The notes below the pieces were generated by a model. The model searched no databases. It saw nothing but the letters and a program-made list of their open reading frames with translations, and was not told the origin of the DNA. The position numbers were made by a program, and so were the translations under genes. From Eledone cirrhosa (Eukaryota), in NCBI GenBank assembly GCA_964016885.1, contig OZ024746.1, positions 76,756,001 to 76,820,000 on the forward strand: DNA of 64,000 bases, in the 5' to 3' direction. Each line of letters starts with the position of its first letter. The stretch's first letter is position 1. Below, piece after piece: positions 3,351 to 40,650 of this stretch.

Positions 3351-3579
3351 AGTAATAATAAATTTGAAGACTAAAATCCAAAGAGGGCTCAATTAGGATA
3401 AATATATAAGAACCGGAGAGCAAATATTTATTAAAATAACAGATTAAAGTTTAAGCAAAGAATTGCCGCTTTCACCCTTAACAGGATCTTCTGAAACTAA
3501 CGGTCAATCTGTAAACGCAGAAGTGGATATTTCAAAAAACGTTGCAACCGGAGGAAGACGATACTTTGGTTCTTGGAAA

Positions 3580-5321: not shown

Positions 5322-5405
5322 CCCATTGTTAGTTTCAGAAGATCCCGTTAAGGGTGAAAGCAGCGATTCTTTGCTTAAACTTTAATCTGTTATTTTAATA
5401 AATAT

Positions 5406-6088: not shown

Positions 6089-10016
<3,928 letters not shown>

Positions 10017-18537: not shown

Positions 18538-18678
18538 TTAACCACAGTCTGATCGATTGACCAGGACTGTCAGCCAAAGAACATTTTAGAGGAAAAGACA
18601 GGCATCAAAAGAAAAAATGGCTAGATAACATGACAAAATGGGCCAATAAAGACTTCACAACAAACAAGTCAATGGAAA

Positions 18679-18688
18679 TTTATTTATT
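18679..18688 (-). promoter_or_regulatory. Candidate poly(A) signals of the TIR gene
   Basis: Two overlapping AATAAA on the minus strand ~80-90 nt after the predicted stop. Confidence 0.5.
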
Positions 18689-18767
18689 GTCATTCATTTG
18701 TAGCTGAACAGGTATCTGGAATAAGATTTATAAAAATCAAAAATCTTTGAGCAATGTAGGTTTACAT

Positions 18768-18886
18768 TTAATTAGAATCATAGTGGGGTGCAGGCAAACT
18801 GGGGAAGTTTGTCATGGGGCCTGCAAGATGACTTTGAACTAGATGTTGTTTCAAACATTCAGGTAGACTATCTGTGTTTTGCAGAA
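18768..18886 (-). CDS. TIR-RHIM gene, predicted terminal coding exon
   Basis: Acceptor T-run-CTTCCAG; phase 1 matches the previous exon; open to TAA: (V)LQNTDSLPECLKQHLVQSHLAGPMTNFPSLPAPHYDSN*. Confidence 0.68.
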
Positions 18887-19529
18887 CTGGAAGAAAAAAA
18901 AAAGTGGGGTGAAATTAGATATTGTAACAAATACAAACTGCTATTTTAATCTTGTTTACTTGCCATCAACCATGAAGAGTTAGAATTCCTCAAGACATGG
19001 TTTCTATAGCTAAATGCCTTTCTTAATGTCAATCATTTTACTGTGGTACCTGCACAAATAAGGTTGTCATGTCCTTGATACAACTGAAGAATCATCCCAA
19101 ATTTATTTTTATGGCAGGTTTCTACAGTGGGATACCCTCCCTAATGCCAACCACTTCATTTATCTGTGCACTCTACACTGTAAAGAGTAGTAGGAGAGAG
19201 CAATAAAGGGAGGTGATTAGAGGCTATATGATTGGTAGAAGGTTGAATAAACAACTACAAGTACAATGTAGAAGGGGAAAGCAAGCAATGAATATAACGG
19301 TTTGGTCACTGCGAGGAGAATGATAGTCAGAGCATGGAATGTGGGCAAGGCAGACACCCATTCACATGACAATACTGTAAGGAGCAGTATGGATGGGCCA
19401 AATGTCACACTACATGTTAACACTGGATAGAAGATACAATATATAGGTGAGGAAGATAAAGACATGGAACTAATAGAAGCATGCTGGATGCCTTATACTG
19501 GTGTGTGGGTCATCTCCAGCACTAAAAGT

Positions 19530-19950
19530 CATCAATCATTGTAGTCCTTAATCCGTGTCATGAGGTTAGTCTTCACCACTTCATCCCACCCATGTTTTGA
19601 GTCAACACTTTTTACAGGTACCATCCACTGTTAGTGCCCTGCACTTTATACAGCTGTCGTCCTCCTTATGCATCACATGTCCATACCAGCACAATCTTCT
19701 CTCTTGCACATTACATTTGATTCCTCTTATACCCAGTTTTTTTTCCCAACTCATTTATGCTTCATTGTTGGTGTACACCCGCTAACATTACATATCCAAA
19801 GTACACTTGCTTCATTTCTAGTTTTTGCAAGTTCTCTGCAGTCAAGGCCCATGTCTCACTGCCATGCAGCATCACAGTTCGAACACAAGCATCATACAAT
19901 CTACACTTCATTTTGAGAGAGAGAGAAGCCCTTTGTTGCCAGCAGAGGTG
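19530..19950 (-). mobile_element. Degenerate RTE 3' fragment
   Basis: MKCRLYDACVRTVMLHGSETWAL in ORF 19762-20061. Confidence 0.85.
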
Positions 19951-20415
19951 ATTATGACAGAATAGCAATATGGAGTGAATATGTTTGTTGCTGAAGGAGA
20001 GAGAGAAGGTATTGTGTTGCGGACGTTGCTGGAAATGGCAGCTCAGAGATGGAGATAGCATTGGTGGTTACTTGTATGACTAACGTTCCCCCACTCCTTA
20101 TTTGGATAACATTGTGCAGTTAATGAGAGTGAGTGGGTTGGCAAACATGAGAGAGTAAATAATATGGGAGTGAGCATATGAGGGCCTGACAGACACCAAG
20201 CTGTCCCAGTTGTGTGAGCAGTAATGTATGGAGAGTGAGACTAATTAAGACAAGGTGAAGGAGTTTAAAGTGAATGAGAATAATGCAGAAATGTTGATGC
20301 AAGATGTTTCTCAAACCTAAGAGGGCAGTAACTCTGAATGCTAGCATGGAACATAGACATAAAATGGTGATGAATATCTTACAAGAACCATCAACTTGAC
20401 TTAGCATTCACTTAC

Positions 20416-20443
20416 CTGTAATATTTTTATTGGCTTCACCTAT
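20416..20443 (-). CDS. TIR-RHIM gene, predicted 28-nt micro-exon
   Basis: ctcatttcag|ATAGGTGAAGCCAATAAAAATATTACAG|gtaagt; phase 0 in, phase 1 out; encodes IGEANKNIT. Confidence 0.7.
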
Positions 20444-20994
20444 CTGAAATGAGTAAGCATAAATGAAATAGGTCATTAAAATAGTTTTAATGAAGAATTT
20501 TATGTACAGGTAAATGTTCACTATGGCTGTGTCTTTAAACAAACAACTCATTATATGAAGAAAATAAAAGAAAAAAAAAATTTACAGCTCACACTTATGT
20601 AGGCTTAGCTGGCCTCCTACGAAGTTGTATCTTATCAATCAGGAATTTTAATAATAGGGACTCCAGTTCTAACATGAGAGTAATGTGAAATTAAACACCT
20701 TTGTCAAAAACACAACAGACTACCTGGTACATAAACTCATGACTTATTCCTGAGTCCAACACTCTAATCACTAGACCCATCATTCAATTCTTGAAACTAG
20801 ATGTCTCTAGGAAATAATAACATGATTCTCATTGCAGTTTGTCAATGAGCTTCAAGTTGTAAAATGATGACCTTGCGGAGACAAGCCTAAACGTTAACAT
20901 AACAATGTACAAGTTATTCATGAGATTTAAGTCCCAGTTGGAAAATTACCTTATTCAATATATTGGAAAAAGTAAATAAGAACTGGAAAATATG

Positions 20995-21490
20995 TACTGT
21001 ATATACTCATATATAAGCCAAAAAAATATGTGAGAAAACAAAAATAGGGGTCAGCTTATATTCAAGGTCAATATTTTGCTGATTTTCACCGACTTAAAAA
21101 TTCTATGTAAATGAAGTGCTAAAATATCTTTGCTTTGGATGTGAATATTACACCAGTTTCACTTTCTGCATGAAATTTGTTTATCCTTTCTTTTTTTGGT
21201 GTGTGTTTGTGGTTTCAATGAATATGGCCCTCAAAATGGTCAGAAATTGGTAAAAAAAAGTCATTATATAATGGAGTTTTGAAGCAAAAACTATATACAC
21301 TAAACAATACTTAAAACATTTAAAATAACAAAATATTAAAACTTCATATATACATTTCATGAGAATTTTAAATCTGTGTCATCTCATCAATGTGTTGATT
21401 AACTGCTTCAGCTTACACACAGGGTTTGGATTTTTGCCTATATCTCAGACATAGAATAGGGAGCCAGTTTATAGTCAAGTATATATGGTA
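20995..21490. mobile_element. Degenerate Tc1/mariner-superfamily (Tc2/pogo-like) MITE
   Basis: TA-CTGTATATACTCATATATAAGC ... GTTTATAGTCAAGTATATATGG-TA imperfect TIRs; subterminal AATAGGGG motifs. Confidence 0.6.
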
Positions 21491-21699
21491 CTTTGGACAC
21501 TATGGGTACACAAAAGATGCAAATGTGATTTCTAATAGCCTGACCAAGACCCAAGACTTTGAATGCAACTAGATCACAGGAATGGTTAATAGGGGAAATG
21601 CTGGCCATGAGTTTGCCTCTAAGAGACACTAACCAAGGCAGGGTGTTTGTGGAAGACCAGCAGTCGCCCATACATGTAAGTCTTCCCTACCCATGCCAC

Positions 21700-21900
21700 T
21701 GATGTCATTCAAGGGAAAGGTTATGGTCAATACAACTTGATATCAGTGCTGTCACAACTTATTTTTGCCAACTGAATAGACTGGAGTAAAGTGAAATAAA
21801 GTTTCTTGCTCAAAGACACATGCCACCCAAACGAGGAATCTAACTTATGACCTTACAATTTTGAATCAAGCACCCTAACCACTGACTCACATGCCTTCAC
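21700..21900 (-). mobile_element. Old CORE-type SINE
   Basis: GTGAAATAAAGTTTCTTGCTCAAAGACAC...CTAACCACT, similar to 2040-2193; further decayed copies near 20590-20780 and 30460-30755. Confidence 0.65.
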
Positions 21901-22683
21901 AATAGTAGGAGGAACATCAATAAAAAGAGTTCCACAAACTACACAGAGTGCATTTGTTGTTGTATATAATTTTTACTATTCAGGTGAATTAATTAGTAGT
22001 GATAGAGAAGGAACTGAAGTATAATAGCTTAGTAAGATAGGAGTGTGAAAGGACTTGCTATGAGTAAAGATCATGCATATTTCCTTTATATCATGTATCA
22101 GGATTTAATCCTTTCTGTTTATTCTCTCACTGTACAGACTTAATGCCATAACCTTAAATAATTTATATTAACATCTATAAAGCACTTGGGCACAAAATAC
22201 CTTGCTGACTAATTAGCCTATGTAGTATGTGTCATGTTACCATATGTCTGATATTTCATAATTGTTTTGTTAATTATTTGTTATAGATATGCTAATTTAG
22301 TTTCAGATTTTGTGTGTGAATTTTGGATTCAGTACAAACGAAAAAATACACTTTCATTAACATGAATTTTAAAAATACACAGTGTTAATAAAATAAATGT
22401 TTAAATAAAAGTAAACTAATGAATCTGAAACTAAATTTCAAAGAAGAATCTAAAACCGAGCAAATAACTGCAAGCTTTTTATGGCCTTTTCCCTGCTAAA
22501 GCAGAAGTTAAACTTGTAAACTCCACGAAAGGCTTAATGCTCATAAGAGCATGCTCACCTCATATCCACTGCTTTCATTACCCAAGTCTCACTGCTATGC
22601 AACATTACACATTGCACACAAGCATCATACAGCCAGCATTTCTTTCATAGAGAGAAATCTTGTGTTGTTAACAGAGGTAGAGT

Positions 22684-22905
22684 TTACCGGGGAGGCCTAA
22701 CAAGGAGATCCCTCAGTAATTGGAACAACCTCGTGTCTCCTTTTTGAAAATTGGGATTATCACTCCTGATTGCCATTGCTTAGGTGCCCTTCCAGAAATC
22801 CAGGTCACCCAGCACACACGAGTCAGCCAGAAAATACCTTCTCTATTTAAGGCATTTAACATCTTTGGCCAGATTTCATCTTCCACAGTGGCCTTGTCAG
22901 ATTTG
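22684..22905 (-). mobile_element. RT fragment from a different RTE lineage (Expander/Rex3-like)
   Basis: Minus-strand translation DEIWPKMLNALNREGIFWLTRVCWVTWISGRAPKQWQSGVIIPIFKK..CSNY*GISLLGLPGK. Confidence 0.7.
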
Positions 22906-23099
22906 GGCTATATATATATAATATATATAAATATATTATATATATATTATATATATATATATAAAATTATGTGAGTTTGGGGTTCAATTGGGGGTAATCA
23001 CAGTTAGTAAGGTACTAATACATTAGTAGAGTGTAAACATCAGTTAAATATAGAAATGGCTTCTACAGGACTAGAACTAGATTTAGTCCATTTCTATAT

Positions 23100-23632
23100 G
23101 AATTTGCATCACCAGTCTGGAACCCCTATCTTGCTCAGGACATTGACCGCCTGGAAACTGTTCAGAGATGTGCAACCAAGCGAATACCCTCAATCAGGCA
23201 TCTACCATACTCTGAGCGCCTTGCTTCCCTGGGCATGGATTCATTGAAGCTCCGACGCCTGGCAACTGACTTGGTAAACACCCACAAAATTGTTAACCAT
23301 GTTGCCAACAACAACCCTGAGTACCTTTTCGATTTCCATGTGTCTAACACACGTGGACATGCCCACAAAGTAAGAAAACAGCACAGTTCCCATGACTTTC
23401 GGAAACATTTTTTCACGCTCAGAGTTGCTGAAGCATGGAACAAACTACCTGCATCAGTTGTTAGCTGTCGAGACACTGCATCCTTTAAGGCCTCCATGCT
23501 TCCCGAGATCCGCCAACAGAACAGCTAACACATACACACATGTACTTCCCTGACATTTGTGTATTATTCTATGTACTATATTGACGAGTTGTAGTGCACC
23601 TGAGCACTTTACACAATAATTTCATTATTATT
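23100..23632 (+). mobile_element. CR1-clade LINE 3' fragment
   Basis: EFASPVWNPY..DIDRLETVQR..YSERL..L..RR..TRGH..FFTLRV..WNKLP; (TTA)n tail. Confidence 0.88.
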
Positions 23633-23643
23633 TATATTAAACT

Positions 23644-23679
<36 letters not shown>

Positions 23680-24264
23680 AGGAATTTTTTCCTTTGAAAT
23701 CATTAAATTACAAAGATAAATGTGAGTCCTTTACTCCATTACTTTACTTGATATATAGCTCTTAACAATTCTGTTTGTTGAGCACTCTAAATTGAATGGT
23801 TATAGGTTGCCATTTCTAGCAGCTTCTTGTTCTATTCATACCACTAGTTACTGGTTCATGCACACATTCTCTTTCCATTTACACATGCTACAGGTCAGTT
23901 ATTTTAGGTCTCCTTAGTAATGAGGGACATATCAGCTTAACACATGCAGATGATCCATAAGCTGAATTGATTCCTTCCTTCACTAATTTATGGTGAAACA
24001 TTCTCCTAGTGAGTCTGTACATGTGTGATTTAGTTATAAAAGTGGGTTATTTCATTTTAATTTATCCTTTTAATTATAATGTATTTCCCAAACCTTTCAT
24101 AGTTTGTTTTTCACGCGAGTGGTCTTATACCCCCTGTAATTGAAAACACATTCTCTTGTGTATTTTCCTCTCTATATTGTATTTTGAAGTGCCCAGGTAT
24201 TTTTCCCTATGAGTTCATTAAATTAAATAAACGCGAGTCATTTACACTGTTGCTTTACTTGATG

Positions 24265-24295
<31 letters not shown>

Positions 24296-24302
24296 ATATA
24301 TA

Positions 24303-26485
24303 TGTGTCCGTAATGATGATGGTGTACTAACTGATGCTGATAAGAAGGTAGCTTGGAAGTGTTACTATGAGAGGCTACTAAATGAGGAGAATAAATGGGA
24401 AAAAGATAGTCTGCCCCAAATCGATCCAATAGAGGGACCAGCGGTGCAAGTTAAAGATAGTATAATAAGTAAGGCAATCAAAGATATGAAGACAGGCAAG
24501 GCAGCTGGGCCTTCGGAGATAGTTGCTGAAATGCTGAAAGCATCTGGAACGGTGGGATACACTATGGTCACCCGGATAGTAAACCAAGTCATACAGAACT
24601 GGGTGATACCAAATGACTGGCGTGGCAGCATCATCATTAACTACTACAAGGGTAAAGAAGATGCCCTAGATAGGGGAAACTATAGAGGCATTAAATTAAT
24701 TGACCAGGTCATGAAGGTCACAGAAAGCGGTATAGTATAACTAATCAGAGATCGAATTGATCTCGATGAAATGCAGTTTGAGTTTGTGTCAGGTAAAAGT
24801 ACGACAGATGCCCTTTTCCTTGTACGACAACTACAGAAGTACCTAGCTAAAAGTAAACCTCTATACTTAGCTTTTGTTGACTTGGAGAAAGCCTTTGACA
24901 GAGTCCCCCCGTGCCATTATCTGGTGGGCCCTTAGAAAACTAGTTGTTGATGAATGGCTTGTGAGACTATACAAGCCATGTATAAAAAAACAGTCAGCAA
25001 GGTTAGAATTAACAAATATAATAAAGAATTTAGCATAAAAGTTGGTGTTCATCAGGGCTCTGTCCTTAGCCTCCTCCTACTTATTATTGCCCTTCAGGCT
25101 ATAACAGAGAAGTTCAAGACCGGCTGCCCATGGGAACCTCTATATGCAGATGATCTAATGCTCATAGCTGAATCGATGGCTGAACTAGAGAACAAATTCC
25201 AAACATGGAAGCATGGCCTAGAATCAAAAGGCCTTAAAGTTAACTTGTCTAAGACTAAAGTTCTAGTATGTAAGAGGAAAATAGGGCACAGGTCCCCTCT
25301 GGGAAATGGCCATGCTCAGTGTGTAGGAAAGGAGTAGGCAAAAATTCCATTTTATGTCCCAAATGCAAAGTATGGGTGTATAAAAGATGTAGTGGGATCA
25401 CAGGTAAGCTATCTAAGAGCATAGATTTTATATGTGGTCGGTGCTCAGGTGCAATAAGTAGCAAGTGCCCACAGGATACTAGCTCCTTCTATTGCCCAGA
25501 TGGTTCTATAGAAATAGTGGACACCTTCCGTAACCTGGTTGACAAAATCAGTAGTGGTGGAGGGTGCTCTGAATGTATAGTAGCCAGAGTCAGAACGGGA
25601 TGGAAAAAGTTCAAAGAACTTATACCACTATTGGTCACTAAAGGTTTCTCTCTAAAAATGAAAGGCAGACTGTATGATGCCTGCATATGAATAGCAATGT
25701 TAGATGGCAGTGAGACATGGGCATTGTGTGCAGAGGATCTGCACAGACTGGAGAGGAACGAAGCATGCATGCTCTGTTGGGTGTGTAATAGTAATATACA
25801 TGAACGGTAAAGCATAAATCAACTAAGTGAGAAATTAGGAATAAGAGGGATCAGATGCTGTTTACTCGAGAGAAGACTGCATTGGTATGGTCACGTGATG
25901 CGCATGAAAGACATCTATATAAAAAAGTGCAGGGCGATCAAAATTGATGGAAGTTACGGAGTAGGCAGACCCAGAAAAACCTGGGACGATTTGACAAATT
26001 CCGACTTCACACACTTACACCTCTCCAAGACAATGTCACTGGACTGAGATCTTTGGCGCTACGCAGTAATACAGAAGACTCACCTTGCCTCAGTACAAAG
26101 CGAAACCTACAGTCAGTAGGCACCTCTTAACCAGATATACACCCACATCCCACTACCCCTACTCCCCCATCCCCACCGCCATCAACACCACCCCTTTCTC
26201 TGTTAAGTTATGTTGGTACCACAACATCCAGTCCTAAATAAATGGTCGTGTAGGTGTCACGACAAAAAAACACACAGTCCACGCTGTAATGTGGCCGTGT
26301 AGGTAACACGGTAAAAACCTCCCAGACCACACTGTAAACGTGGTTGGTGTTAGGAAGGGCACCAGCCGTAGAAAACCTGCCAGACAGTCCTATACGAGCA
26401 AGATGACCAATCTTGCCTCGAGTGGGACAATTCCCATCTAAACCCATGCTAACGTGGAAGATAGACGTTAAATGATGATGATGAT
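24303..26485 (+). mobile_element. 5'-truncated, decayed RTE family B-like copy
   Basis: Collinear with 7869-10016; several stops and frameshifts; (GAT)n tail. Confidence 0.93.
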
Positions 26486-26566
26486 ATATATATATATATA
26501 TATATAAAATATTAAAAAAATAATGAATAAAACAATGAAACAGTTCCTTATATTAAACAAAAAAAG

Positions 26567-26721
26567 TTCATTATTTAACGATCGTTTCTAGGATATATAT
26601 GTGTTAGAATTGGCATGCATATTCAACAGATCTATGTACAAAATTATACAAAATTATACAAACTATCAAGATTAAATATACATACCAAACACACATATAT
26701 GCCGTCTTCAGAAATAATGAA
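26567..26721 (-). ncRNA. Mirror copy of the hammerhead motif
   Basis: Reverse complement of 27292-27446 in the other arm. Confidence 0.8.
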
Positions 26722-27291
26722 ATATATTTATTGATAATAACAACAATTCAAAATTTCAGGTCCGTTTGGGAACAGAGTTCAAATTGACCAATGAAAATAC
26801 AAAAAATTTTATGCAGTTTGGTGTGTGTATATACATGTAATTAACTTCGTACACATATTTATATAAAGATATATGCTCACTATAATACTATATGCACATA
26901 TATATGTGTGTGGGGGTGTGTGTGTGTATGTATGTTCGTAATTATGTGTATGTTTATGCATATACGCGCGTGTGTGTGTGAGTGTACGTATATGTGTGAG
27001 TATATGAATGTGTGTATACATTTATTTCATATTTATGTGTCTATACGCATTTTATCTGTGGATTATAAACTTACAGAGACATTAGCCTTGAATTTTTGTA
27101 TTTGCATACATCTTTTTGGCATGCGTATGCATGTGAGCATATATCTTTATATAAATATGTGTACGAAGTTAATTACATGTATATACACACACCAAACTGC
27201 ATAAAATTTTTTGTATTTTCATTGGTCAATTTGAACTCTGTTCCCAAACGGACCTGAAATTTTGAATTGTTGTTATTATCAATAAATATAT

Positions 27292-27446
27292 TTCATTATT
27301 TCTGAAGACGGCATATATGTGTGTTTGGTATGTATATTTAATCTTGATAGTTTGTATAATTTTGTATAATTTTGTACATAGATCTGTTGAATATGCATGC
27401 CAATTCTAACACATATATATCCTAGAAACGATCGTTAAATAATGAA
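27292..27446 (+). ncRNA. Type I hammerhead ribozyme motif with extended stem II
   Basis: TTCATTATTT-CTGAAGA-[ATATATGTGT...ACACATATAT]-GAAA-C-GATC-GTT-AAATAATGAA; 10-bp stem I; palindromic AACGATCGTT stem III. Confidence 0.82.
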
Positions 27447-27715
27447 CTTTTTTTGTTTAATATAAGGAACTGTTTCATTGTTTTATTCATTATTTTTTTA
27501 ATATTTTATCTTGACTCTGTATTCCGTTTATCTTTCACCGAAAGTGATTTTTCATTGCATCTCTTCTTTCCATGATATCCGGACTACATTGAGTTCTTCA
27601 TACGGATTGGACACTACCGTAAACTCTTGGTAGATTTATCTACATATATATATATATATATATATATGCATACATATATATACATATGCATACATATATA
27701 TACATTTATAAAATA

Positions 27716-28510
27716 TGGGTACACTGTAGTGTATGGTGGCTATGATTATGACTCGAGAAATGAAGGGAAGGCATGGCTCCTAGAATTCTGTGATGCAATG
27801 TGTTATCAGTTGGTACTTAAGGAAACCAAGTGTAGATGAGTGGCTTGTGAGAGCAAGAAATGGACACAGATGTTGTCAGTAATGTGAGAATAAGTAATGA
27901 GTTTAGGGAGATATTCAATTTGCAGGTAGGTGTTCATCAGAATCAGTCCTCAAACTACATGTGACAAGGCCATGACAGAGGAGTTCAAAACTGACTGTTC
28001 ATGGGCACTTCTGTATGCTGATCACTTGGTTCTTATAGCTGAATATGTGGAAGAGTAAGAGAAGAAATTCCTATGGTAGAACTAAGGATCAAAAGGGCTC
28101 AAAATAAACTTAGCAAAGACTAACGTTTTAGTAAGTTGGAAAAACGACAGGATTCTAGTTCCATCAGGTGAGCATGCTTATGTGCATGAATAGCTAAGTA
28201 TGGATGAGCTGAGAGAAAAACTGGGTATAAGTGGAACCAGATGTAATATGCAAGAGAGAAGACAACACTGGTATGGACAGGTGATGCATATGAATGATGA
28301 TCATTGTATGATGAAGTGACAGGTGATGCAAATGGAAGCTGCGGAAGAGTAAGACCAAGGAAGACCTAGGTGAAAGTGGTAAGACCTTATCTCAAAATGC
28401 TGAATCTTGCTGATGGCAAAATAACACAATGAGTGAAGAGAAGCTACGTTGGTAAAGCCCTGTTCAACCTATGCAAACATGGGTATAAAAGGATGATGAT
28501 AATGATGATA
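27716..28510 (+). mobile_element. Highly decayed, internally deleted RTE
   Basis: RNEGKAWLLEFCDA, LLYAD and WYG.VM remnants; (GAT)n-like end. Confidence 0.75.
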
Positions 28511-28910
28511 CAAACAGATTATTTTGTGTCCATTTTCCATGCTGGCATGGGTTGGACAAGTTGTTACAGTCCAACTCAGTTCTTATTTGGAGTTACTACC
28601 GTACTAGACGGGTTGAGTGACCACATAATGCTATATTGCTCTCTTAGCTAAACCATCATAAGTGTATATACAACAAGTTTCTGCTGTTTCCATTTACCAA
28701 ATTCCAAGACATTGGTCAACCTGGGGTGCTACACAGCAGGACTGAACTCAGAACCATGTTGTTGCAAAGCGAACCCCTTAACCATACAGCAATGCCTGTA
28801 CCTATATGAATTACATTGAGGGAAAATTTCATGACAATGCAGTATATTTTTCTATTAAATAATTCACTCATACAACATTTTAGAAACAAATTGATGATAT
28901 ATTTACTTAC

Positions 28911-29386
28911 ATTGATTGTATTATTTGCACCAATTTGCATTATGTCAATATTAATCCTCCTAGTTTGTTCTTTTGGTCTCTCTTTTAAGTGGCTAAACTG
29001 TGCTTTAAGTTGCTTTTTGGCTCTATCCTGATCCTGCCATTGTATTTGCGTGAAACTCTGTGTTCCAAAATCATCTATTTTTTTATTTTTTATTATTGTT
29101 ATTTTATCAGATACCTCTTGAACTAATTCATTCTTTATATGTTTAGTACGGCTATCCTTTTGAAAATTTTCTGTAATTAACAAAAGGACATAATTACATT
29201 TGAGTAAGAGTTGATGTATATGTTCAATATTTTTATTACGGCCCGTTGATATCATGTCATATAGATCACATGTTATTATTGTTTCCAGAAATGTTTTAAT
29301 TTCAACAGCTAAATCATAATCAGTCGGATGATAATAGATACAAGCATCATACATAAAGCTGTTTTTACTGTTGGTCGACAAAGATT
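28911..29386 (-). CDS. TIR-domain + RHIM-like motif exon (main exon)
   Basis: T-run-AG acceptor and AAT|GTAAGT donor; YDACIYYHPTDYDLAVEIKTFLE (box 1-like), STGR loop, CNYVLLLITENF, then IMQIGANNTIN. Confidence 0.82.
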
Positions 29387-30861
29387 CTAAAAAAAAGATA
29401 AAGAGAAAATATTTATAACAATGTTATTGTGTATGATGATATATAATTATTGATTAGAACTGATATATTAACATTGTATTAGAGTAGTGGTTCTCAGAAA
29501 TCCAGGCTACATTCCTCCCCTTGCAATCCCAGCTTTCTTCAATTCCACACCCATTTTGAATTGTCATCTGGTAATTTTTCACCATGAGCAACCTCAATAA
29601 TTGTATAGTCCTAAACAGGATTAACTCTGAAGCAGCAATTCTTTTTTTATATGAACTGTTAATTTGTCATCTTCTTTATAGGTGAGTATATTTGTATTTC
29701 ATTTTATACACAATGAAACACTATTCTCTCCCAGCTTAGATTTCTCCATTGACAAACATTCCTCCTCAATTCCTCTATTGGCTAAAATTCCTACCCAGGG
29801 AGCCAAGTGCTTTCCATTACTGAGTATTACTGTATTATGGAAGATTATAATAAACAAAATGTGGCTAAGGGTGGTGCTCCAGTGAACTGCCACCCACATG
29901 CTGGTTTTCTTGCTATGTTCAGTGTTAATTCTCATTTGCTGATTGCCTTTCTGTACAGCCCTTCAAGTGCAGCCTTCACAAGCAACCAATCCATTACATT
30001 TCTTATGACATACATTATATTTGAATAAATCAATGAAGAATAAGGAGAGATTCACTAAAATTGTTTATTATTTCATTAAGATAGTATTTCTAACAAACAA
30101 TTCTTAAATATAATTATTGTTCGAAAATTTTCATTTAAATTGGAACCCTTTAAAATGGGTGATTTTGGTTCATAGAACAAAAGGCAGTTCTGACCAGGTT
30201 GGCATTGGTATCAAAAGGGTTTAAATAAATCTTTATTATTGAATAACACTGGACTAGGCATTTTACTATTTTTAGGATGAATTTATTTTAATCTATGAAA
30301 ACTCATGGGATACATAGAGCTTCAATGAGTATCCACCTAACATCAATCTTGTGCCACCTTTCTCAATTCACCCCACCATTCTTCATCCACTTCCTGTGTT
30401 TTATGCAGTCTTCCTCTTGCACTTCTGCCAACTGCCATCCAACTGAGTGAAATCTGAAATTTACAGCTCACACTTATATGCAAGTTTAGCTGGCCTTCTA
30501 TGAGGTGCCATCTCATATAAGATTTCACATAGATTTTAACGATAGGGGGCCCTAGTTGTTACAGCTCACACATATGCAAGTTTAACTGGCCTCCTATGGA
30601 GTTATATCTCATGATAGGATCCCAGTCCTATCTTGAAAAATGTGAAATGAGTATTTTGCTCCAGAACACAGTATACCACCTGGCCTAAGAATTGAACTCA
30701 TGATGCTATGATTATTTGTCCAACACCTTAACCATTAGGTCACATGCTTTCACATGGTACAAAATAGAATTATAGCAATTGGAAATAGAGTCAGACTGCT
30801 ACTATTGTGGAAAAAAAGACATGAAATCAGAAATCATTACATAATGGGCAGTTTGACGTAC

Positions 30862-30901
30862 CTGATGATCCTTCAAAAGTAGCATTTGTGGCGACATCCA
30901 T
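30862..30901 (-). CDS. TIR-RHIM gene, first coding exon (exon 30862-30911)
   Basis: Pyrimidine tract..tatag|GAGAATTATA ATG G (A at -3, G at +4); MDVATNATFEGSS+G|gtacgt; phase 1 joins the TIR exon as GAA. Confidence 0.72.
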
Positions 30902-30979
30902 TATAATTCTCCTATATAAACAATATATAAAAATAAATGAAAAATAAAAGGAAATAATTAATAAATAAAAAAAAAAAGG

Positions 30980-31125
30980 GTACAGGTATGGCTGTGTGGT
31001 TAAGAAGTTTGCTTCACAACCACATGGTTCTAGGTTCAGTTTCACTGCATGGTACCTTAGGCAAGTGTCTAATACTATAATCTCAGGTTGATCAATGCTT
31101 TGTGAGTGGAATTTGGTAGGCTGAA
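30980..31125 (+). mobile_element. tRNA-derived SINE (related decayed copy at 28670-28805, minus)
   Basis: TGGCTGTGTGGTTAAG A-box, GGTTCAGTT B-box-like, CCTTAGGCAAGTGTCT core. Confidence 0.7.
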
Positions 31126-31610
31126 TCAACAGGATCCTATCGCGTATATTTGTAACTATCTGCAAATCTTATATAGGAACCACATCAAAGTTTTTAAAGA
31201 AAAAGTGCTCCTCACATTTACATTCTTTTAGAATGTAAAAAAAAAAAAACTGCACATCACTCATACAATTTATCTGGAGTTTACACAATTCTAAGGTAGA
31301 ATACAGTTTACCTTGATTTGTCCTTACAAATCAAGGTAAACTATGGGTCTGAGTATAATCTTTGTTCTATTAAAGATCTTGAAATAGCAATGTTTTATAA
31401 ACCTCTTTTAAATCAGACAATAAATTCATACATTTTCAAGAATGGTTTATTATCCTACATAGATAACATTTTATCATTTTAGAGAATTATCATAATTCAA
31501 ATTCTTTATAATTTGACATTTTTCAAACCTTAATTCCTTTAAAAAAATATATTTTTACACTGCAATCTACACTTGTTTTTACACAAATAATAATTATGTT
31601 TATTTTAGAT

Positions 31611-31849
31611 AATATAAAGAATGGTGTGATCATGCATTGAGATGCTACAAAATAGCTTATAAGATAGGGGGAAGACCTTTAAAGATGGAAAAAGAAGTTG
31701 TCATTGGCCACTATGAGGAATTGAATATTATCTGAGAGATATGGGGTTCCAATCAAAATAGTGACTGATGCCAACTTCTTTTTCTGTCTTCAAAAGTCTT
31801 CACTCTATTTTATAGCATCTCAGAACATGAGCATACCATTCTTTGTATT
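31611..31849. mobile_element. Degenerate foldback/MITE
   Basis: ~100-bp imperfect inverted arms (AAAGAATGGT..TGAGATGCTA..AAGAAGTTG / CAACTTCTT..TAGCATCTCA..ACCATTCTTT). Confidence 0.65.
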
Positions 31850-32089
31850 AACTTTATTCCCTCAGCGCTTCATAAAAGTCTGAGAGATTGGCTTTGTATA
31901 CATGATGTTAATTTTAGAATGTTGTTACCTTTGATGAAAATAATTCAGTTTAATTTTTCTTTGTATTAAGACCACATATAAAGTGAGATGCAGAACCCCT
32001 GGCCTGTTTGGGAGGGCAGCAGCCTTGCTTCAATACTAATTTGGTCTATATAAACCTGTCTGACCCTTGTTAATAGGGAAAGTGGACGT

Positions 32090-34560
32090 TTTTCCTTCAG
32101 TTCATCCAAGCTTTGCCTTTCTCTTCAGCCTACACTGCCATGAGGCATTGCCCTTTGCACACAGGCATCATACAGTTATCCTTTTGTACGTAGAGAGAAA
32201 CATTTCATTGTCAACAGTGGGAGTAGCTCTCTAAATTTCTTCCATTCTATCCTTATTCTAGCTATTATGTTCTCAGAACACCCCCTCTGCTACTAATTAA
32301 GTCACCTAGATAGCTGAAGCTATCAACCACTTCTATGGACCCTTCCTGTGACTTGGAGGTTTCTATCATTGATGCTCTTCCCCTTGATTACTCCAGTGCA
32401 TCTTCTACATACAAAGTCTTCCTTTCCTGTGAGACCACCCATTATCCCACTACATCTCTTGTGTACCCAAGATTTACATTGTGTGCACCATATGGAGTTT
32501 ATGCCTACTCCTTTCCTATACATTAAGCAAGGCCACGTCTGTGAAGGGATCAGGATTCTATCTTCTTTCCTCCTCACTAGCACTTTAGTTTTGGCCAGGT
32601 TTACTCTCAGACCTTTTGATTTCAAATTCTGTTTCCATAGACAGACTTATTTTCTAGTTCTTTTATGGATTTGGCTATAAGGACTAAATCATCTGCACAG
32701 AGATGTTCCCATAAACAACCAGTTTTAAACTCCTGTGGCTTGGAGAACTATGATAAATAGCAGTTGGATAAGAACCAAACCTTGATGAACTCAAACGTGT
32801 ACCTTGAATTTCTCACTAAACTCACTTCCTTAAGGACCACCAGATAATGGATCGAGGTATTCTGTCAAAAGCCTTTTTTAGATCAACAAAAGCTAAATAT
32901 AGTGGCTTATTCTTGGCAAGAACTGCTCTTGTAGTTGCCTAAGAAGAGGGCATCTGTAGTACTTTTCTCAGGCATGAAACTAAACTGCATCTCATCTAAT
33001 TTTACTCTTTCCATAATTAGCTGTGCTATAACGCTTTCCTTCACATTCAGAACTTGATCCATTAGTTTTATTCCCCTGTAGTTGCTTCTTTCTAGAGTAT
33101 CAACTTTGTAGCAATTTATGATTGTAGTGCTGCGCCAGTCATTGGGTATGACTTCGTCCTGTATTACTTGATTGACTATGCGGGTTACTAGTTCAATTCC
33201 TACTTCTCCCGATGCTTTTAGCATCTCAGCAACGATCTCTGACAGTCCTTTGATTGCTTCTTTTACCCTATAACTGTCAACTTCAATAGCTGGTCTTTTG
33301 TTGGGTAAGTTGGAAGTAGTTTCTTTTCCTCCCATTCATCAATCTTTCATAGTAATATTTCCAGGCTTATTTCTTTTGAAAATCAGTGGTGCTAAGTGTA
33401 CCAGTGTCATTTCTAACACTTTTCCCCAACAACATCTCGATTTACACTAACATACTGCCTTGCAATGCAAAACACTTCATGCCTCTGGTCCTCACGTCTC
33501 AAATTTTCTTTTTTTAGCCTTTCTCCAAGCTGTGTATACCTGTTGTCCAGCTTCTCTCTTAACGACCTGCTACCCCAATTTTTCAATGCCTGTCTCCTGG
33601 CTTTATTGGCTCTAGCCACAGTGCTGTTACACCACCAAGTCACCCTCTGCCTGGTTGGCACTTTACTCCAGCCACAAGTCTCATCAGATGTTTGCAAAAG
33701 TTTGTCACATACGAATTTCCAGTTGTCCTCTATATTATATGTACCTATTGAATCCTCTAGGGCCTTTCTAAACCTATATTTAACTGAAAGTCTTTTAGCT
33801 TCCAAACCCTCCATCTCAATATTTTCCTGTGTATCTTGTTCTGTCATGTGCTTATTTTGATGTCGCTAATAACTAACTTGTGTTGGGCAGTGCATTCTTC
33901 CCCAGGGAAGGCCTTAGTGTTTATTACAGACCATTTATCTTGTTGCCTTATGAGTAAGTAATCAATTTGGCTTGAGCGTTCACCTGATTGATATGAAATC
34001 AGGTGGCTGGCTGGTTTCCTGAAATTTATGTTGCAGATGGTTAGTTCATTCACATCGCAGAATTCCAGGAGCCTCAATCCCTCTTCATTTCTTGAGCCAT
34101 AACCTTAACTGCCATGAACTCTACAGAATCCATCCTGGTACTGTCCCACATGTCCATTGAAGTCACCTGAAATTTCCTGTAAAAGTTCCTCATAGAACCT
34201 GTCCTTTTGTTCTTTACCCAGTCCTGCATGTGGAGCATAGCTAGATGTGATTGTCACCAGTCTATTTCCTACAGCTATTCTAAGCTCGATGATTCTGTCA
34301 CTCAAACTACCTCTATCACCTTATCTACCCATTTCTTAGCTAGCAAGATGCCTACACCTCCTACTCCATTATTATTTCCTACCCAGTAGACTATATATCT
34401 CTGTTGTTTACCTGTGATTAGTCTTGCACACGCACCCTTCTATCTCACTTCTTGTATACAGCATACATCTACTTCTCTTCTCTGTAACAGTTCCACAATT
34501 TCACCTGATTCACCTTTCAGGATTCCAACATTGAGGGTAGCAATCTTGAGATTTGTACCT
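32090..34560 (-). mobile_element. Old RTE LINE relic (EN + RT); its EN part from 33683 is repeated in every tandem unit
   Basis: Fragments SGDFNGH, RLLEFCD, SQIDY, NYRGIKLMDQ, WPC..CTQCKSWVHKRC. Confidence 0.9.
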
Positions 34561-34974
34561 TGACAATTGCTGTTATTTCCTTGGGTAGAGGTTCTATGTA
34601 CCAGAAAGGAAAAAAGGCTTAATGACGGTAAAAGGGTTCTCGCACATAGCTACTCTAGCCACCCCACTACCATGTGCAGCACTAACATGACTACAGTTAG
34701 CCCTGTATATGCAATTAATGAAAATCGTATTTGGGCTTGTCATATTTTTGGCAAGGTTATTCTGGTTGGATGCCCTTCTTATCATCAACTACTTTACAGC
34801 ATGGACTGGATGCATTATTCGGGCCACCAGCACTAGAGGAGTTGTTTTACTGGACTCAAGAGTCCTCTCCACCCTATATCAATTTTTTTATTTGGAATGT
34901 CTACTCTCCTAGACGTGTTGCCTTCACTACGGCTTACAAAGTCCCCGCCTGTCCCATACAGCTGTTTTTAATCA

Positions 34975-35221
34975 GAGTCACTGCCCTCCTAGATGTGTTG
35001 CCTTCACTACAGCTTATCTGCCCCAAGCAGTCATTTTTAGTTGGAGTCACTGCCCTCCTAGATGTGTTGCCTTCACTACAGCTTATCTGCCCCAAGCAGT
35101 CATTTTTAGTTGGAGTCACTGCCCTCCTAGATGTGTGCCTTCACTACAGCTTATCTGCCCCAAGCAGTCATTTTTAGTTGGAGTCACTGCCCTCCTAGAT
35201 GAGTTGCCTTCACTACAGCTT
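34975..35221. repeat. 68/69-bp minisatellite, ~3.6 units
   Basis: GAGTCACTGCCCTCCTAGATG..TGCCTTCACTACAGCTTATCTGCCCCAAGCAGTCATTTTTAGTTG. Confidence 0.95.
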
Positions 35222-35649
35222 GTGGAGTCCACATCTGTCGCGTGCAATTTTTCCGACCTTGGTGAGTGTAACAGGGCAGGTGAGGAAAGCAATGGTCAAG
35301 ATGGTTGAGGAGTTTGGGAGCCAGGTGCAAGGCAATGTCAGCTAGAACAGCTAACAGGATGGTGGTGGATAGGGAACAGGTGGGATGTGGAGATGATAGA
35401 GCCATAGGCTGGGTTTTACTTTGAAAGAGACAGTACAGGAATGCTGCATTTTTTGCTTGTTTAGAATTAATCGAGACCGGAGAATGGAGGAGTGGTGATA
35501 GAGCCATGAAGTTAGTTGAGGAAGAAAAAGAAGGAGAAGCATTTAAAAAGCATATCATAGATATAACGAGCAAATCCATATAGGCTTCATTTGAACTTAG
35601 AATGTCTCTTTGAGTAAAACATAAAACATTTTGAATGAAAATATTGATA

Positions 35650-38340
35650 ACTTCTTTAACTCTATACTGTCAATTTTGATAGCTGGTTCCTCTGTTGGGT
35701 CAGCTGAGAGTAGTCTATCTTCCTCTCATTCATCAGTTCTCATAGTAACATTTCCAGACCTCTTTTGTTTGGACATCAGTGATGCTAAGTGCACCAATGT
35801 CCTTTTGAGCACACTTTTCCTCAACATACTGCTTCACACTAATACAGTGCTTTGTAATGCAGAACACATCACGTCTCTGATCCTTATATTGCAAGATATT
35901 GGTAATCCTCCTTTCAGCCTCTTTGCATGCTATATATACTTGTCTAGCTTTTCTTTTAGCTACCTGGCACTGGTCTCTGCTGTCTCCATGCCTGACTTTT
36001 GGCTTTAACATTCTATTCACTATACTGATCTACCATCAGGCCACTCTTTGTCTGGCTGAAGCAAAGCACCAACTATAAGTCTCATCAGTAGTCTGTAGTA
36101 GGTTGTCATGTAGAAACTTCTAATTGTCCTTTATATGAATCTAACTTATCTTCTCTATCATTATATGCAACATGTAAAGCTTTCCTGAACCTATACTTAA
36201 CAGAAAGGTGCTTTAGCTTCCAAATACTCATCCTCCAGATTTTTCTACATTTTAAGTTCTGATGTAATAACTAACTTTTGTTGGCCTGTGATTTCTTCTC
36301 TGGGGAAGGCGTTAACATTTATGATCATCTGTTTATCTCATTTCCTAACAAGAAGTCAATCTGGTTCACTTGTTCACTTGATTGGTAGGTGATCAGGTGG
36401 CTAGCCAGTGCTGCAAATGGTTAGTTCATTTGCATCATAGAATTCTAGAAGCCTCATACAGTCTTCAGTTCTCAAGCCATAACACAGGTGTAGTCATCCT
36501 GGTGCTGCCCAACATGTTCATTGAAATCACCAGCAAGGATAATGAGGTTTCTGTCATCTGTAACTGACGTTGTCTGTAAAAGTTCCAAATATAAGCAGTC
36601 CTTTTATTCCTTACTTAGTTCTGCCTGTGGTGCATAGCTTGAGATAATTCTCATCATTCTATTGCCTATGACTATTCTGAGTTTGATAATTCCAAACCTG
36701 GAAGCAGGGACTAGAGAGAAAGGGCCTCAAAGTCAACATGACAAAGACTAAGGTCCTTATAAGTAGACGAGAAAACAGAACCCAGATCCCCTCAGGGAAA
36801 TGGCCTTGCTCAGTATGTAGGAAAGGTGTAGGTAGGAACTCCATTCTCTGCCCCAAATGCAAACAATGGGTACACAAGAGATGTAGCGGGATCTCAGGAA
36901 GCTTAATTAAGAATGTAGGATTCACATGCAGCAGCTGTGCTGAAACAGCAAGCAAACAGCCACAGGAAACAAGTACCACCAATCTCTGGGAGGGCCCTGT
37001 AGAAACAGTAGACAGCTTCTGCTACCTAGGTGACCGAATTAGCAACGGAGGTGGGTGCTCAGAAAGTACAATAACTAGGGTAAGAACGGGATGGAAGAAG
37101 TTTAGGGAACTACTACCACTGCTAGCTGCAAAAGGCTTCTCCCTCAGAATGAAAGGCAGACTGTATGATGCGTGTATCCGAACAGCGATGTTGCATGGTA
37201 GTGAGACCTGGGCGCTGAAGGTGGAAGACTTACGTAGATTAGAGAGAAACGAAGCCTGCATGCTCCGATGGATGTGTAACAGTAATATACGTGAACGACA
37301 AAGCATAAAGGAATTGAGAGAGAGACTGAGCATAAGAGGAATCAAATGCTGCGTACAGGAGAGGCGGTTACGCTGGTATGGACATGTGATGCGTATGAAG
37401 GATGACAGCTGCATAAAAAGGTGCAGAGCACTAGAAGTTGATGGAAACCGCGGAGTGGGGAGACCCAAGATGACTTGGGATGAGGTGATAAAAGCCGACC
37501 TTACCCAACTACACCTCTCAAAGTCAATGACACACGACCGTGACTTCTGGCGTCACGCAGTAATACAGGGTACCCGACCTCCCATGGGTACATGCTGAAG
37601 CATATAAACAATATGCCCCCCCCCCCCCCCCCCCACCGCAAGGTGGTCGTGGAGGTGCCACGGCAAAAAAGCACCCAGCCCACACTGTAAAGTGGACGTG
37701 TAGGCGCCACGAAAAAGCACCCAGCACTCACTCGTGGAGGTGCCACGGCAAAAAAGCACCCAGCCCACACTGTAAAGTGGACGTGTAGGCGCCACGAAAA
37801 AGCACCCAGCACTCACTCGTGGAGGTGCCACGGCAAAAAAGCACCCAGCCCACACTGTAAAGTGGACGTGTAGGCGCCACGAAAAAGCACCCAGCACTCA
37901 CTGTAAATGAGGTTGGTGTTAGGAAGGGCATCCAGCTGTAGAAATCAAGCCAGATCAGTTCCTGTATGAGCAAGGCATGGTCAGCCGACCAGACACTGCC
38001 CACAACAGGACAACCCGTCTAACCCATGCTAGCGTGGAAGAACGGACGTAAAACGGTGATGATAATTCTGTCTCTTACCCTAACAACTTTGATTACCTTA
38101 TCTATCTACTTCTCAGCTAGTAGAATGCCTACTCCACCTACCCCATCATCATTCTCTACCCAGAAAATCTGTGTTGTTTGCCTGTGGGTAGTCTTGCTGA
38201 AGTGCCACTCCCTCTCACTTCTTGAGCACAGCATACATCCACTTATCTGCTTTCAAGTAACTCAACAATTTCTCCAGATCTTCGTTTCAGAGTGCCCACA
38301 TTAAGAGTGGTAGCCCTAAGATGTGCTACCTGACAGTTGT
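35650..38340 (-). mobile_element. Second old RTE relic (EN region), split by a young RTE-A insertion; present in each unit
   Basis: AKRKARQVY..EKC and LAGDFN; VVRVRDRIIKLRIV reads through once the insert is removed. Confidence 0.82.
36688..38063 (+). mobile_element. Young 5'-truncated RTE-A (ORF 36738-37598), TSD TGATAATTC
   Basis: Near-identical to 12746-13950; 85-bp 3'UTR block triplicated at 37648-37902. Confidence 0.95.
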
Positions 38341-38680
38341 GGTTATAGCGAAATCTCTTCACACACTGACCCCCAGATGACACCTAGCTTTCAATGTTCA
38401 GTAATCTGGGGTGACGTCAGTTTGTCTGGAGTGTCAGGTCATTTTTGAGGTAAAAGCAAGATAACTTCTTTCAATCAGTCTACTCTGGTCCCTCGAAAGA
38501 GACGCATCAAATCGACCTGCTCAAGCAACTAGCAAGATGTAGCACTTAGCAAAAAACTTTGGCCCTCTCAACAAGGGCCCAGCAACATTCTTCCATCTGC
38601 ATTTCATCACATCAACATAAGTTTTGGTAAATACTTTTTAATTATACATGGACAATTATACATGGATAATTTAATTATAC

Positions 38681-39500
38681 AGGGAGTTGGGTGAAGCTCT
38701 ACAGCAATGGAGTGAGTTGGGCTTGTCTCTTTCTGAGAAAGTGGAGGACAGTCGAAGTCAGAGAACTTGGGACAGCATAAGTTCGAAGGCCACCTTCGAC
38801 TCCCTCTTAGTCAGATCAGTTTGCAAACGCCAAATACTCAGGCAACTGAGTTGATGCCCTACCCGTGGCCAACTCAACCTGGATGAACTCCGTGTCTCCA
38901 TCGCCCTCAGAGTGGGAGCTGACGTCTGCATGGGTTTAAGGTGCCGATGCGGCAAACTCCTAAACTCCACAGACCTCCACGGTCTTTCTTGCCGCCTGAA
39001 TGCCGGCCGCTTCGCACGTCATACGGAGATAAACCTCATCCACAAGAGAGCTTTGGCCCGGGCGAACATCGTCGCAGTCTTGGAACCATCTGGGTTGTCC
39101 GAAAGTGACAGCAAAAGACCTGACGGCCTTACCCTGTGCCCCTGGTCTAGAGGCAGGTGCTTTGTCTGGGACGTCACTTAGTGACTCTTTTGCTCTCTCC
39201 CACATCCTGGATGCTGCGGTTAGCACGGGAGCCACAGCTTCTGCAGCCGAGCGGAGTAAGACCCTCAAATATTCTGATCTGTCGGCCAGCTACCTTTTTC
39301 AGCCTGTGGCTTTCGAGACGTTTGAGGGAGTCGGGCCGCTGACTGCGAGGTTCCTCTCTTCACTGGCGGCTTGCTTAATAGAGGTAACTGGCGAATCTCG
39401 CGAGGGCGCCTGGCTGTTCCAGCAACGCTGCGAGTGTGCTGGCTTGCTTCAAAAGTCATTAGAGAGGTCGCCCAGTACCCCTCGCTGCTGTCTTTTGCTC
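38681..39500 (+). mobile_element. CRE-clade non-LTR retrotransposon 3' fragment (zinc knuckle + restriction-like endonuclease), frameshifted
   Basis: QRTWD, CRCG..HGLSC, RH, LEPSGL..KRPDG..PWSRG..WDVT, AE..K..KY, FQPVAFET.G. Confidence 0.85.
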
Positions 39501-39959
39501 TGGTGTTGGCTCGGTTGTTCACCCCTTCCTTTACATTTTCTTTACTGTTTTAAACAAGGATTTGTTTGTTTGTTTTTTTAGTACTGTTTGGTATTCCTTC
39601 TTAAGTTTCCACACAGTTTTTTTTCCTCTCTTCTTTTATTTAAACATTGTCTTTCTCCCTTCCCTTCCCCTAAACCTTTTCCTTACTTTCGTTATTTAAT
39701 TTTTTTCCAAACAAACGGCTGTAAGGAGAAGATTTGAGAGAAAGAGCTTCGTAAAGGCTTAGAAATGAAACTGAAGAACAAGCGACAGCAAAGAAAGAAT
39801 ATGAGTAAAAGAGTTTCGTAAAGGATTACAAACGAAACAGAAGAAAATAGTCCGCAGTCGGAATATGAGACAAAAGAGACGATTCAAAAACAGCAAAAAA
39901 TACCAATGCAATGAGAGCTGGCCGTATAAATGATGCAGGATTTATAGCTAATTATGATA

Positions 39960-40140
39960 ATTGTTTCTACTTTTGGCACAAGGCCAGCAATTATTCCAGT
40001 GTATTACTGGTTTTTTTATTTTATTGACTGCGTCAGAATGAAAGGCAAAGTTAATCTCGGTGGGATTTGAACTCAGACCATAAAGGGCCGTACCTCTATA
40101 CTGCAAGGCACGGCGTCCGACCCTCCACCGATACTGCCAA
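39960..40140 (-). mobile_element. SINE of the second family (also at ~47784, ~55607, ~63423)
   Basis: Homologous to 15721-15900. Confidence 0.75.
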
Positions 40141-40374
40141 TTTAGAAAACAGATTTTGTTTATATTTAAACAAATACAACAATTAGCAGTCATTTGTTTA
40201 CGGCACGGGCCAGCTAGTCGTTAATATTCTGCGAAATTTCATTAATAAAGGAGATTTGGTTGAAATTATCGCAAAAAAGATAAACCAAGGATATATATAG
40301 AAGAAAAATGTCAAGCTCTAACTTTAGGAAAAACTTAAAAGAAAACAATATTTTAAGCTTAAATTTCAGAATAT

Positions 40375-40650
40375 ACTTACAAGAAATTTCCATCAACTTC
40401 TGGTTTCAAGCAAAGCTGACGTCAATTTTTCTATTTTGTATTTGAATGTATTTAATTAAGTTTCAAGATATTTTCTATAGCTTTGATTATATATTTTTGT
40501 GTATTATAATTGGATATACTGTGATTATTTAAGCCGTTAAAACTGCTATAAAAACAAAAACAAAAAATAAGATTTTGTTCGAAAATAAAATGTAACCTAA
40601 TATTAAATTGCATGTAGACTTGAAATCAAGTCTATTTCCTGTTTCGTTAT
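40375..40650 (-). promoter_or_regulatory. Candidate promoter/non-coding first exon of the TIR gene, one per tandem unit
   Basis: Minus-strand donor GTAAGT 40375-40380, GGAAATTTCT 40382-40391, TGACGTCA 40417-40424, AACGAAACAGGAAA near 40635-40648. Confidence 0.35.

Follow-up and report, generated by a model that had tools for sequence, protein, structure and literature searches.

The 64,000 nucleotides of Eledone cirrhosa DNA analysed here (assembly GCA_964016885.1, contig OZ024746.1, positions 76,756,001 to 76,820,000; hereafter the window, numbered from its first letter) hold all the coding exons of a minus-strand gene of ~46 kb. The spliced contig and genome match described below establish that this gene is real, that it has five exons and that it encodes a complete, soluble protein. 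An earlier reading of the same DNA, made from its letters alone (the original prediction), had proposed a hidden four-exon gene in a probable mollusc, encoding a TIR domain followed by a RHIM-like tail in the manner of chordate TRIF/TICAM1. Here we describe the gene, its relatives and its neighbours, and weigh what its product might do.

The evidence for splicing comes from one run of one study. Four public runs, all belonging to that study and none recorded as RNA, contain the large exon, and they were compared over 18550-31300. In one of them, X1, whose library type is unrecorded, a single contig of 917 nucleotides at depth 79 spans all three introns that had been proposed, with joints at exactly 18886/20416, 20443/28911 and 29386/30862; because it carries splice joints, we infer that X1 is RNA. 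The other three runs (X2-X4) show none of the three joints and read continuously through the exon-intron boundaries. The contig divides into pieces of 212, 28, 476, 50 and 151 nucleotides, the last of which is absent from the window and has a single match in the 3.0-Gb genome, 418-568 bases past the window end. The four proposed segments thus stood, with their phases and with junctions exact in X1, but the segment bearing the ATG proved to be internal, and a fifth, non-coding exon lies 33.5 kb upstream. This true first exon, like a head-to-head TIR-only paralogue to which we return below, sits just outside the window and had been missed.

In the order of the transcript, exon 1 (151 nucleotides, minus strand, G000:C6:76820418-76820568) is non-coding, ends in a GT donor and joins an AG located 10 nucleotides before the ATG; the leader on this side holds two short upstream open reading frames (ORFs). 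Intron 1 (minus strand) measures 33.5 kb, covers 30912..64000 plus 417 bases past the window end, and consists mostly of a tandem array. Exon 2 (30862..30911, minus strand) contributes 10 nucleotides of 5' untranslated region, the ATG at 30901 and 40 coding nucleotides up to a phase-1 donor. Exon 3 (476 nucleotides, 28911..29386, minus strand) encodes the entire TIR-fold domain, the linker and most of the tail motif, exon 4 is a microexon of 28 nucleotides (20416..20443, minus strand) delimited by the X1 joints, and exon 5 (18675..18886, minus strand) supplies the last 39 codons, the stop at 18768 and the 3' untranslated region. Joined, the four coding segments on the minus strand of the window give 663 nucleotides, that is 220 residues and a TAA, and the three introns between them are GT-AG with phases 1, 0 and 1. 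The ATG context is good, as had been noted, with A at -3 and G at +4, and since an in-frame stop precedes the ATG, the 220-residue ORF is not truncated. A polyadenylation signal AATAAA is present as predicted, although it begins 80 rather than ~85 nucleotides after the stop, and the X1 contig ends 93 nucleotides after the stop. The best 19-residue hydropathy of the protein is 1.06, which bears out the earlier statement that no transmembrane segment is visible; together with the complete ORF and the upstream stop, it sets the gene apart from the Toll-like receptor layout of a leucine-rich repeat ectodomain and a transmembrane helix.

Most of exon 3 (28986..29357, minus strand, residues ~24-147) encodes a domain that is predicted to have a TIR fold, with the subfamily assignment tied. 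AlphaFold2, given a four-sequence alignment, modelled it as a five-strand alpha/beta domain with a best mean predicted local distance difference test score (pLDDT) of 71; the model built from the single sequence was poor (pLDDT 53, all-helical). At E<=0.001 Foldseek gave ten matches, every one an animal TIR domain, with TRAM (8.3e-5) ahead of TIRAP and TRIF. VIA-align placed the TRIF TIR first (Z 13.1, rmsd, or root-mean-square deviation, 3.0 over 121 aligned residues), with Hydra TRR-2, TRAM, MyD88, SIGIRR and IL-1RAcPb within 1 Z unit of it; its top 20 rows are TIR-type and the first receiver domain appears at Z 10.7. A viral fold library gave no match at E<=0.001. The structural comparison proposed with the original prediction therefore favours a TIR fold, but TRAM and TRIF are tied there with MyD88 and Hydra TRR-2. 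By sequence, the signal is faint: the protein scores 16.8 bits against Pfam TIR_2 (E 0.01), below the curated cut-off of 28, its relatives reach at most 13.5 bits, TIR family searches of its own genome miss the locus, and searches of PDB sequences with single proteins returned no or irrelevant matches. Among ESM features, TIR_2 clusters lie at 0.94 and one bacterial TIR_2 cluster, 17% of whose members carry RHIM, at 0.91.

Relatives of the protein were found only in octopods, namely Octopus sinensis, O. vulgaris, O. bimaculoides and Argonauta hians (8 sequences in clusters), in agreement with the supposed molluscan origin, and all are uncharacterised or annotated under unrelated names. A full scan of 1.84 billion representative proteins gave three proteins at E<=0.001; this single-sequence search of representatives is the one that covers longer fused homologues. 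None of the 35 candidates from a word-indexed protein search was related, and profile searches added no further relatives (3 of 7692 and 3 of 8000 candidates). O. sinensis LOC115213021, CAI9724214/5, XP_014786310-14 and GAB1611125 are likely orthologues of the window gene: they have the tail motif at the same position, and the two proteins used as genome queries, P0004 and P0003, each match this locus and no other. The O. sinensis gene id is named in no paper that we found. Divergence among the O. vulgaris isoforms sets in 9 residues past the point equivalent to the start of the 28-nucleotide microexon, which suggests that the same microexon and exon structure are shared there. Identity to the window protein is 30-36%, a level that may be unusually low for octopods, and O. 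bimaculoides shares 68-69% with the other two Octopus species; divergence of this kind may point to a gene under pathogen pressure. The O. sinensis and O. bimaculoides orthologues (among P0001, P0002 and P0006-P0008) continue past the motif into a long, variably spliced tail of 5-residue repeats, which is absent in the window protein and in Argonauta, and one O. vulgaris isoform ends ten residues after the motif.

The RHIM-like motif itself comprises 16 residues (28911..28958, minus strand, residues 157-172), with the core MQIG at 163-166 and the pattern M-Q-I-G-x-x-N at residues 163-169. In all members a variable linker is followed by alternating aliphatics and then by G-x-N-x-x-aliphatic-N, in which G, N and N are invariant in 4/4. 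It is on this block that the best local alignment of the post-domain tails lands in 5/5 pairs; of 5000 shuffles, 27, 368, 18, 84 and 14 reach the score, although the proteins are no more than 30-36% identical. The sequence G-x-x-N-x-hydrophobic follows the tetrad in four of the five proteins (the window protein and three from Octopus); in Argonauta, Ser takes the Asn position and the preceding Asn is kept. RHIM motifs are expected in disordered regions outside folded domains, and the predicted monomer agrees, with pLDDT mostly <50 from exon residue 136 onward. Published core tetrads have the form (V/I)-Q-(V/I/L/C)-G (PMC9444067; the RHIM definition also in PMC9440496), and MQIG departs from it at position 1 only, so the motif that had been quoted as the known (I/V)QIG is mismatched at its first residue. 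If Met is allowed there, a relaxation made after the sequence was seen, the window protein matches the published pattern, as do 6 of 20,000 shuffles; allowing Ala at the third position admits the three Octopus proteins, and Argonauta fits neither relaxation. A deep mutagenesis study reports that single loop deletions in the RIPK3 RHIM raise nucleation (10.64898/2026.02.19.706818), which fits the loop that is one residue shorter in Octopus. The motif part of P0004 drew no usable match among ESM features, and a complex prediction with four copies of the tail segment, run without an alignment, scored 0.02 against a mark of 0.32 and is evidence neither way. On present alignments and profiles, the tail is RHIM-like and conserved, yet it is no RHIM family member by the tests applied.

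Beyond the window end, on the opposite strand, lies an ORF for a TIR-only paralogue of a predicted 166 residues (L055:1220-1250 + 3519-3988, equivalent to G000:C6:76821220-76823988, plus strand). With a family hidden Markov model (HMM) over the fetched loci it scored 22.8 bits (E 1.7e-5), the next at 7.1 and TLR TIRs at ~5, and by hhalign it matches the family at 87% probability (E 3.9e-6, 28% identity over 110 columns). Its TIR exon lies 3 kb past exon 1 of the main gene, and its two exons would join by a GT-AG intron of phase 1 placed, like that of the main gene, ahead of the TIR exon. In a tree of octopod TIRs only, the paralogue has a long branch and groups with the family at weak support (83/66). 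Its residue in the catalytic column of TIR NADases is Glu, whereas position 2 is not Gly and the tail motif is lacking. No further copy turned up in the genome, no database homologue was seen among 8000 candidates (it may be unannotated), and no third paralogue occurs in 324 kb around the locus. The ~650 bases between the 5' end of the main transcript and the paralogue ATG (within L055:418-1220, a gap of no more than ~0.7 kb) form a candidate bidirectional promoter. Further out, at G000:C6 76.65-76.93 Mb (L104, L090, L095), are a protein kinase exon (Pfam Pkinase), a proline-rich gene whose tested exon has no Pfam match and a forkhead gene (Pfam Forkhead), which we take to be ERK3/4-like, WBP11-like and FOXJ1-like, respectively, and which are useful synteny markers.

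The array in intron 1 (33678-64000) is made of about four units of 7.82 kb that are 99.7-99.9% identical and contain fragments of long interspersed nuclear elements (LINEs) and 69/85-bp repeats; such near-identity indicates either very recent amplification or an assembly artefact. An unbroken LINE ORF of 1040 residues with endonuclease, reverse transcriptase and a PHD-like zinc finger occupies 10534-13656 on the plus strand, and the 3' 1 kb of this element is 99.4% identical to a piece of the array, suggesting a recently active family. Two transposon remnants lie on the minus strand, presumably Penelope/GIY-YIG-like at 4662-5381, where there is no Pfam match, and Tc1-like at 6503-7365.

An amyloid-type tail might be expected to have a partner with a matching motif. 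The genome holds 18 Death-domain matches, 22 and 15 TIR matches and ~11 TLR-type ORFs. Scanning ~1.5 kb on each side of the Death-domain loci and the first TIR-match loci revealed no credible motif, nor did 100 kb beside two death-domain loci. In the genome-wide motif scans no other gene was convincing, the window gene alone matching within a coding-like frame that is both long and non-repetitive. The partner that the original prediction implies for the tail was therefore not found by these scans; they score only the best candidates and ignore introns, which can hide motifs, so one may have escaped them. One C-terminal death domain resembled that of PIDD rather than that of RIPK1. Two tandem clusters were noted in the course of these scans: ORFs with a CARD-like region, recognised by eye, before a death domain (G000:C2:233.68-233.83 Mb, L033, L034, L036, L039, L042, L044; also L038), and five closely similar TLR genes spaced at ~29 kb (G000:C1:399.27-399.38 Mb, L013, L023-L026).

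With moderate confidence, we read the product of this spliced gene as a soluble octopod protein of 220 residues that combines a predicted TIR domain with a conserved RHIM-like tail, a putative innate-immune adaptor whose amyloid-type tail would be convergent on the TRIF/TRAM layout. An upstream TIR, either that of one of the ~11 TLR-type ORFs or that of the TIR-only paralogue acting as a bridge, would cluster the window protein; once clustered, its tail would be nucleated into cross-beta stacks, formed either with other copies of itself or with a putative partner, and the output could be inflammatory transcription or cell death. This reading draws on the splicing, the fold matches, the motif block kept at such low identity, the TLR-type ORFs and the presence of RHIM-like motifs in molluscs. 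We further suggest, much more tentatively, that octopods evolved an entire TRIF/TRAM-like module of their own, in which head-to-head TIR genes under a shared promoter supply a TIR-only bridge and a TIR with an amyloid tail.

Several observations weigh against an amyloid-type adaptor. On the side of the domain, only two of the five AlphaFold models reach pLDDT 70, and the BB-loop Pro-Gly, which is described as present in TLR, TIRAP, MyD88 and TRIF TIRs (as EDFxxPG in TRIF; PMC7075850), is absent from the loop in every family member, so canonical adaptor assembly would be weakened. On the side of the tail, the strict tetrad occurs in none of the five proteins: that of the window protein and those of its three Octopus relatives start with Met, the Octopus ones also have Ala in third place, and Argonauta lacks a Gln in register. 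An aliphatic pair placed five residues ahead of the tetrad is reported to be required in RIPK1/3 (10.64898/2026.02.19.706818), and this gap is 2 in the window protein, 4 in Octopus and 5 in Argonauta, where the last aliphatic is missing. In the tail alignments, the pair of the window protein and O. bimaculoides lies within chance, and the pairs are not independent. Pfam RHIM (PF12721) was unmatched by whole proteins, by motif peptides and by the locus in a genome search, with the limits that HMMER filters drop weak matches and that this model is just 22 positions long; a motif profile retrieved no RHIM chain from the PDB, and two genome-wide motif scans stayed at control level (9 vs 8 and 23 vs 20). 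Of the claim of a C-terminal RHIM after a TIR, the layout survives and the strict consensus and the Pfam match do not; likewise, of the expectation that MQIGxxN would be conserved in orthologues, the G-x-x-N-x-hydrophobic part holds in four of five proteins, and the part before it fails in the Octopus Ala and the missing Argonauta Gln. The HMMER comparison suggested with the original prediction fell short for TIR_2 and RHIM alike.

The most probable rival dispenses with the amyloid step: the protein would be an orphan TIR adaptor or regulator, and its tail either a RHIM in decay or a linear binding motif of the ordinary kind. It is possible, if doubtful: each lineage departs differently from the RHIM consensus, no profile method recognises the motif, the genome scans found no partner motif, and mollusc genomes are rich in orphan TIR proteins (17 TIR-only proteins are described in Aplysia; PMC9334734). 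Simple decay, however, sits poorly with a motif block that is recognisable at 30-36% identity when the linker and distal tail are not, and that keeps its alternating aliphatics and its G-x-N. A decoy or brake, in which a TIR without the BB-loop Pro-Gly caps TIR filaments and a degenerate motif poisons RHIM-type amyloid, as is thought of Pirk/Rudra in the insect IMD pathway, seems unlikely to us; the missing Pro-Gly, the lack of a TRAF6 or pLxIS site and of a second folded domain, and upstream ORFs in the leader that suggest tight control would all fit, yet the genome scans found no target amyloid, and inhibition is unreadable from sequence.

An effector is more improbable still. The protein would act as in bacterial effector-BASS3 pairs, where an effector domain, TIR2 included, is combined with an amyloid motif (10.1101/2020.01.06.895854, PMC7889193): a sensor acting upstream would serve as template for the tail, and NAD+ cleavage would fall to the TIR so clustered or to the paralogue clustered with it. 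Glu100 is invariant in 5/5 aligned proteins, and the paralogue has Glu in the usual column. The motif WCxxE marks NADase TIRs, and the original prediction rightly found it not evident here: by alignment, the usual Glu column, three residues past W-C in helix C, is occupied by Ile or Leu in 4/4 motif-bearing proteins (Ile97 in the window protein, one turn before Glu100). The fold matches slightly favour scaffold TIRs, though SARM1 and bacterial TIRs are within ~2 Z units of the top match, and no sensor with a matching motif was found. Least probable of all is a true, highly eroded TICAM/TRIF orthologue from an adaptor that predates the protostome-deuterostome split, for although both fold searches rank TRAM, TIRAP and TRIF first or nearly so and the domain order and TIR-only sister gene match, Z is tied within 1 with Hydra TRR-2, MyD88 and SIGIRR, TICAM chains are 11-14% identical to the window protein, which has neither the BB-loop motif nor the pLxIS, TRAF6 sites and N-terminal domain of TRIF, and four protein searches gave no relative outside octopods.

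The putative octopod adaptor resembles vertebrate TRIF/TICAM1 and TRAM/TICAM2 in being a soluble TIR with a RHIM-type motif C-terminal to it, in having a sister gene that is TIR-only and in its best fold matches, whereas at 220 residues, with ~23 before the TIR, it has no room for the N-terminal domain that accompanies pLxIS and TRAF6 sites in TRIF (PMC9440496), and neither pLxIS nor a TRAF6 site PxExx(aromatic/acidic) occurs in 4/4 proteins. With these hallmarks and the BB-loop Pro-Gly absent, TRIF orthology, and with it any descent from TRIF/TICAM, is unsupported; most likely, the TRIF/TRAM-like layout arose independently. TRAM is myristoylated, and the octopod sister gene differs from it in having no Gly2 and in its head-to-head arrangement. 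TIRAP/MAL chains are the sole PDB sequence matches of the family profile (8 matches at E<=10, E 0.14-2.2, weak and insignificant), over strands A to C including the LLIT strand, but no RDxxPG box or lipid-binding leader was recognised in the window protein and, to our knowledge, TIRAP has no RHIM.

Reports place TRIF-type TIRs in gnathostomes or chordates (PMC7075850, PMC9440496, PMC9334734), and the Aplysia survey found no TRIF, TRAM, MAL or RIPK and suggests that other TIR proteins might fill the role (PMC9334734). One review names TRIF and TRAM for Nematostella (PMC11359984), and sources on amphioxus conflict, one describing a TICAM without a RHIM motif (PMC9440496) and another citing a TICAM paper among Branchiostoma RHIM proteins (PMC9444067). 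Within protostomes, RHIM-like motifs occur in insect PGRP-LC/LE, IMD and Pirk, with a shifted consensus, and in other invertebrates (PMC4262963), as well as in bivalve CARD+RHIM proteins (PMC12452177), so the motif class exists in molluscs; none is combined with a TIR in the portions of these sources available. Mollusc orphan TIR and ecTIR-DC proteins are likewise invertebrate cytosolic TIRs of unassigned role (PMC9334734, PMC6321704; PMC6321704, PMC7179693 and PMC12521104 served for context only), but the window family, in contrast, scores below Pfam cut-offs.

Genome surveys have treated the TRIF/TRAM branch as a chordate invention, and surveys of that sort would overlook the window family, whose scores stay under the usual domain cut-offs. 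Its parts and its layout have precedents; what appears to be undescribed is to meet them in a protostome, in a head-to-head pair that had stayed hidden, and the open-access literature searched contains no report of a cephalopod TIR+RHIM protein. Two short genes and a 16-residue motif make a concrete candidate that is small and testable, and if the module is as we suggest, a protostome would possess a MyD88-independent, amyloid-based branch of TIR signalling. The closest parallel in architecture is offered by bacterial TIR_2 + BASS3/RHIM proteins, minimal TIRs with a RHIM-like motif in ~200 residues and, as noted, among the feature neighbours. They differ in that the partner of a BASS effector is a neighbouring NLR with the same motif, while the octopod neighbour is a TIR paralogue without it; no sequence similarity was found between the two, and introns and relatives confined to octopods give no sign of transfer. 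Should the tail form amyloid, the combination of a TIR with an amyloid motif would be common to bacteria, chordates and cephalopods, probably by repeated assembly.

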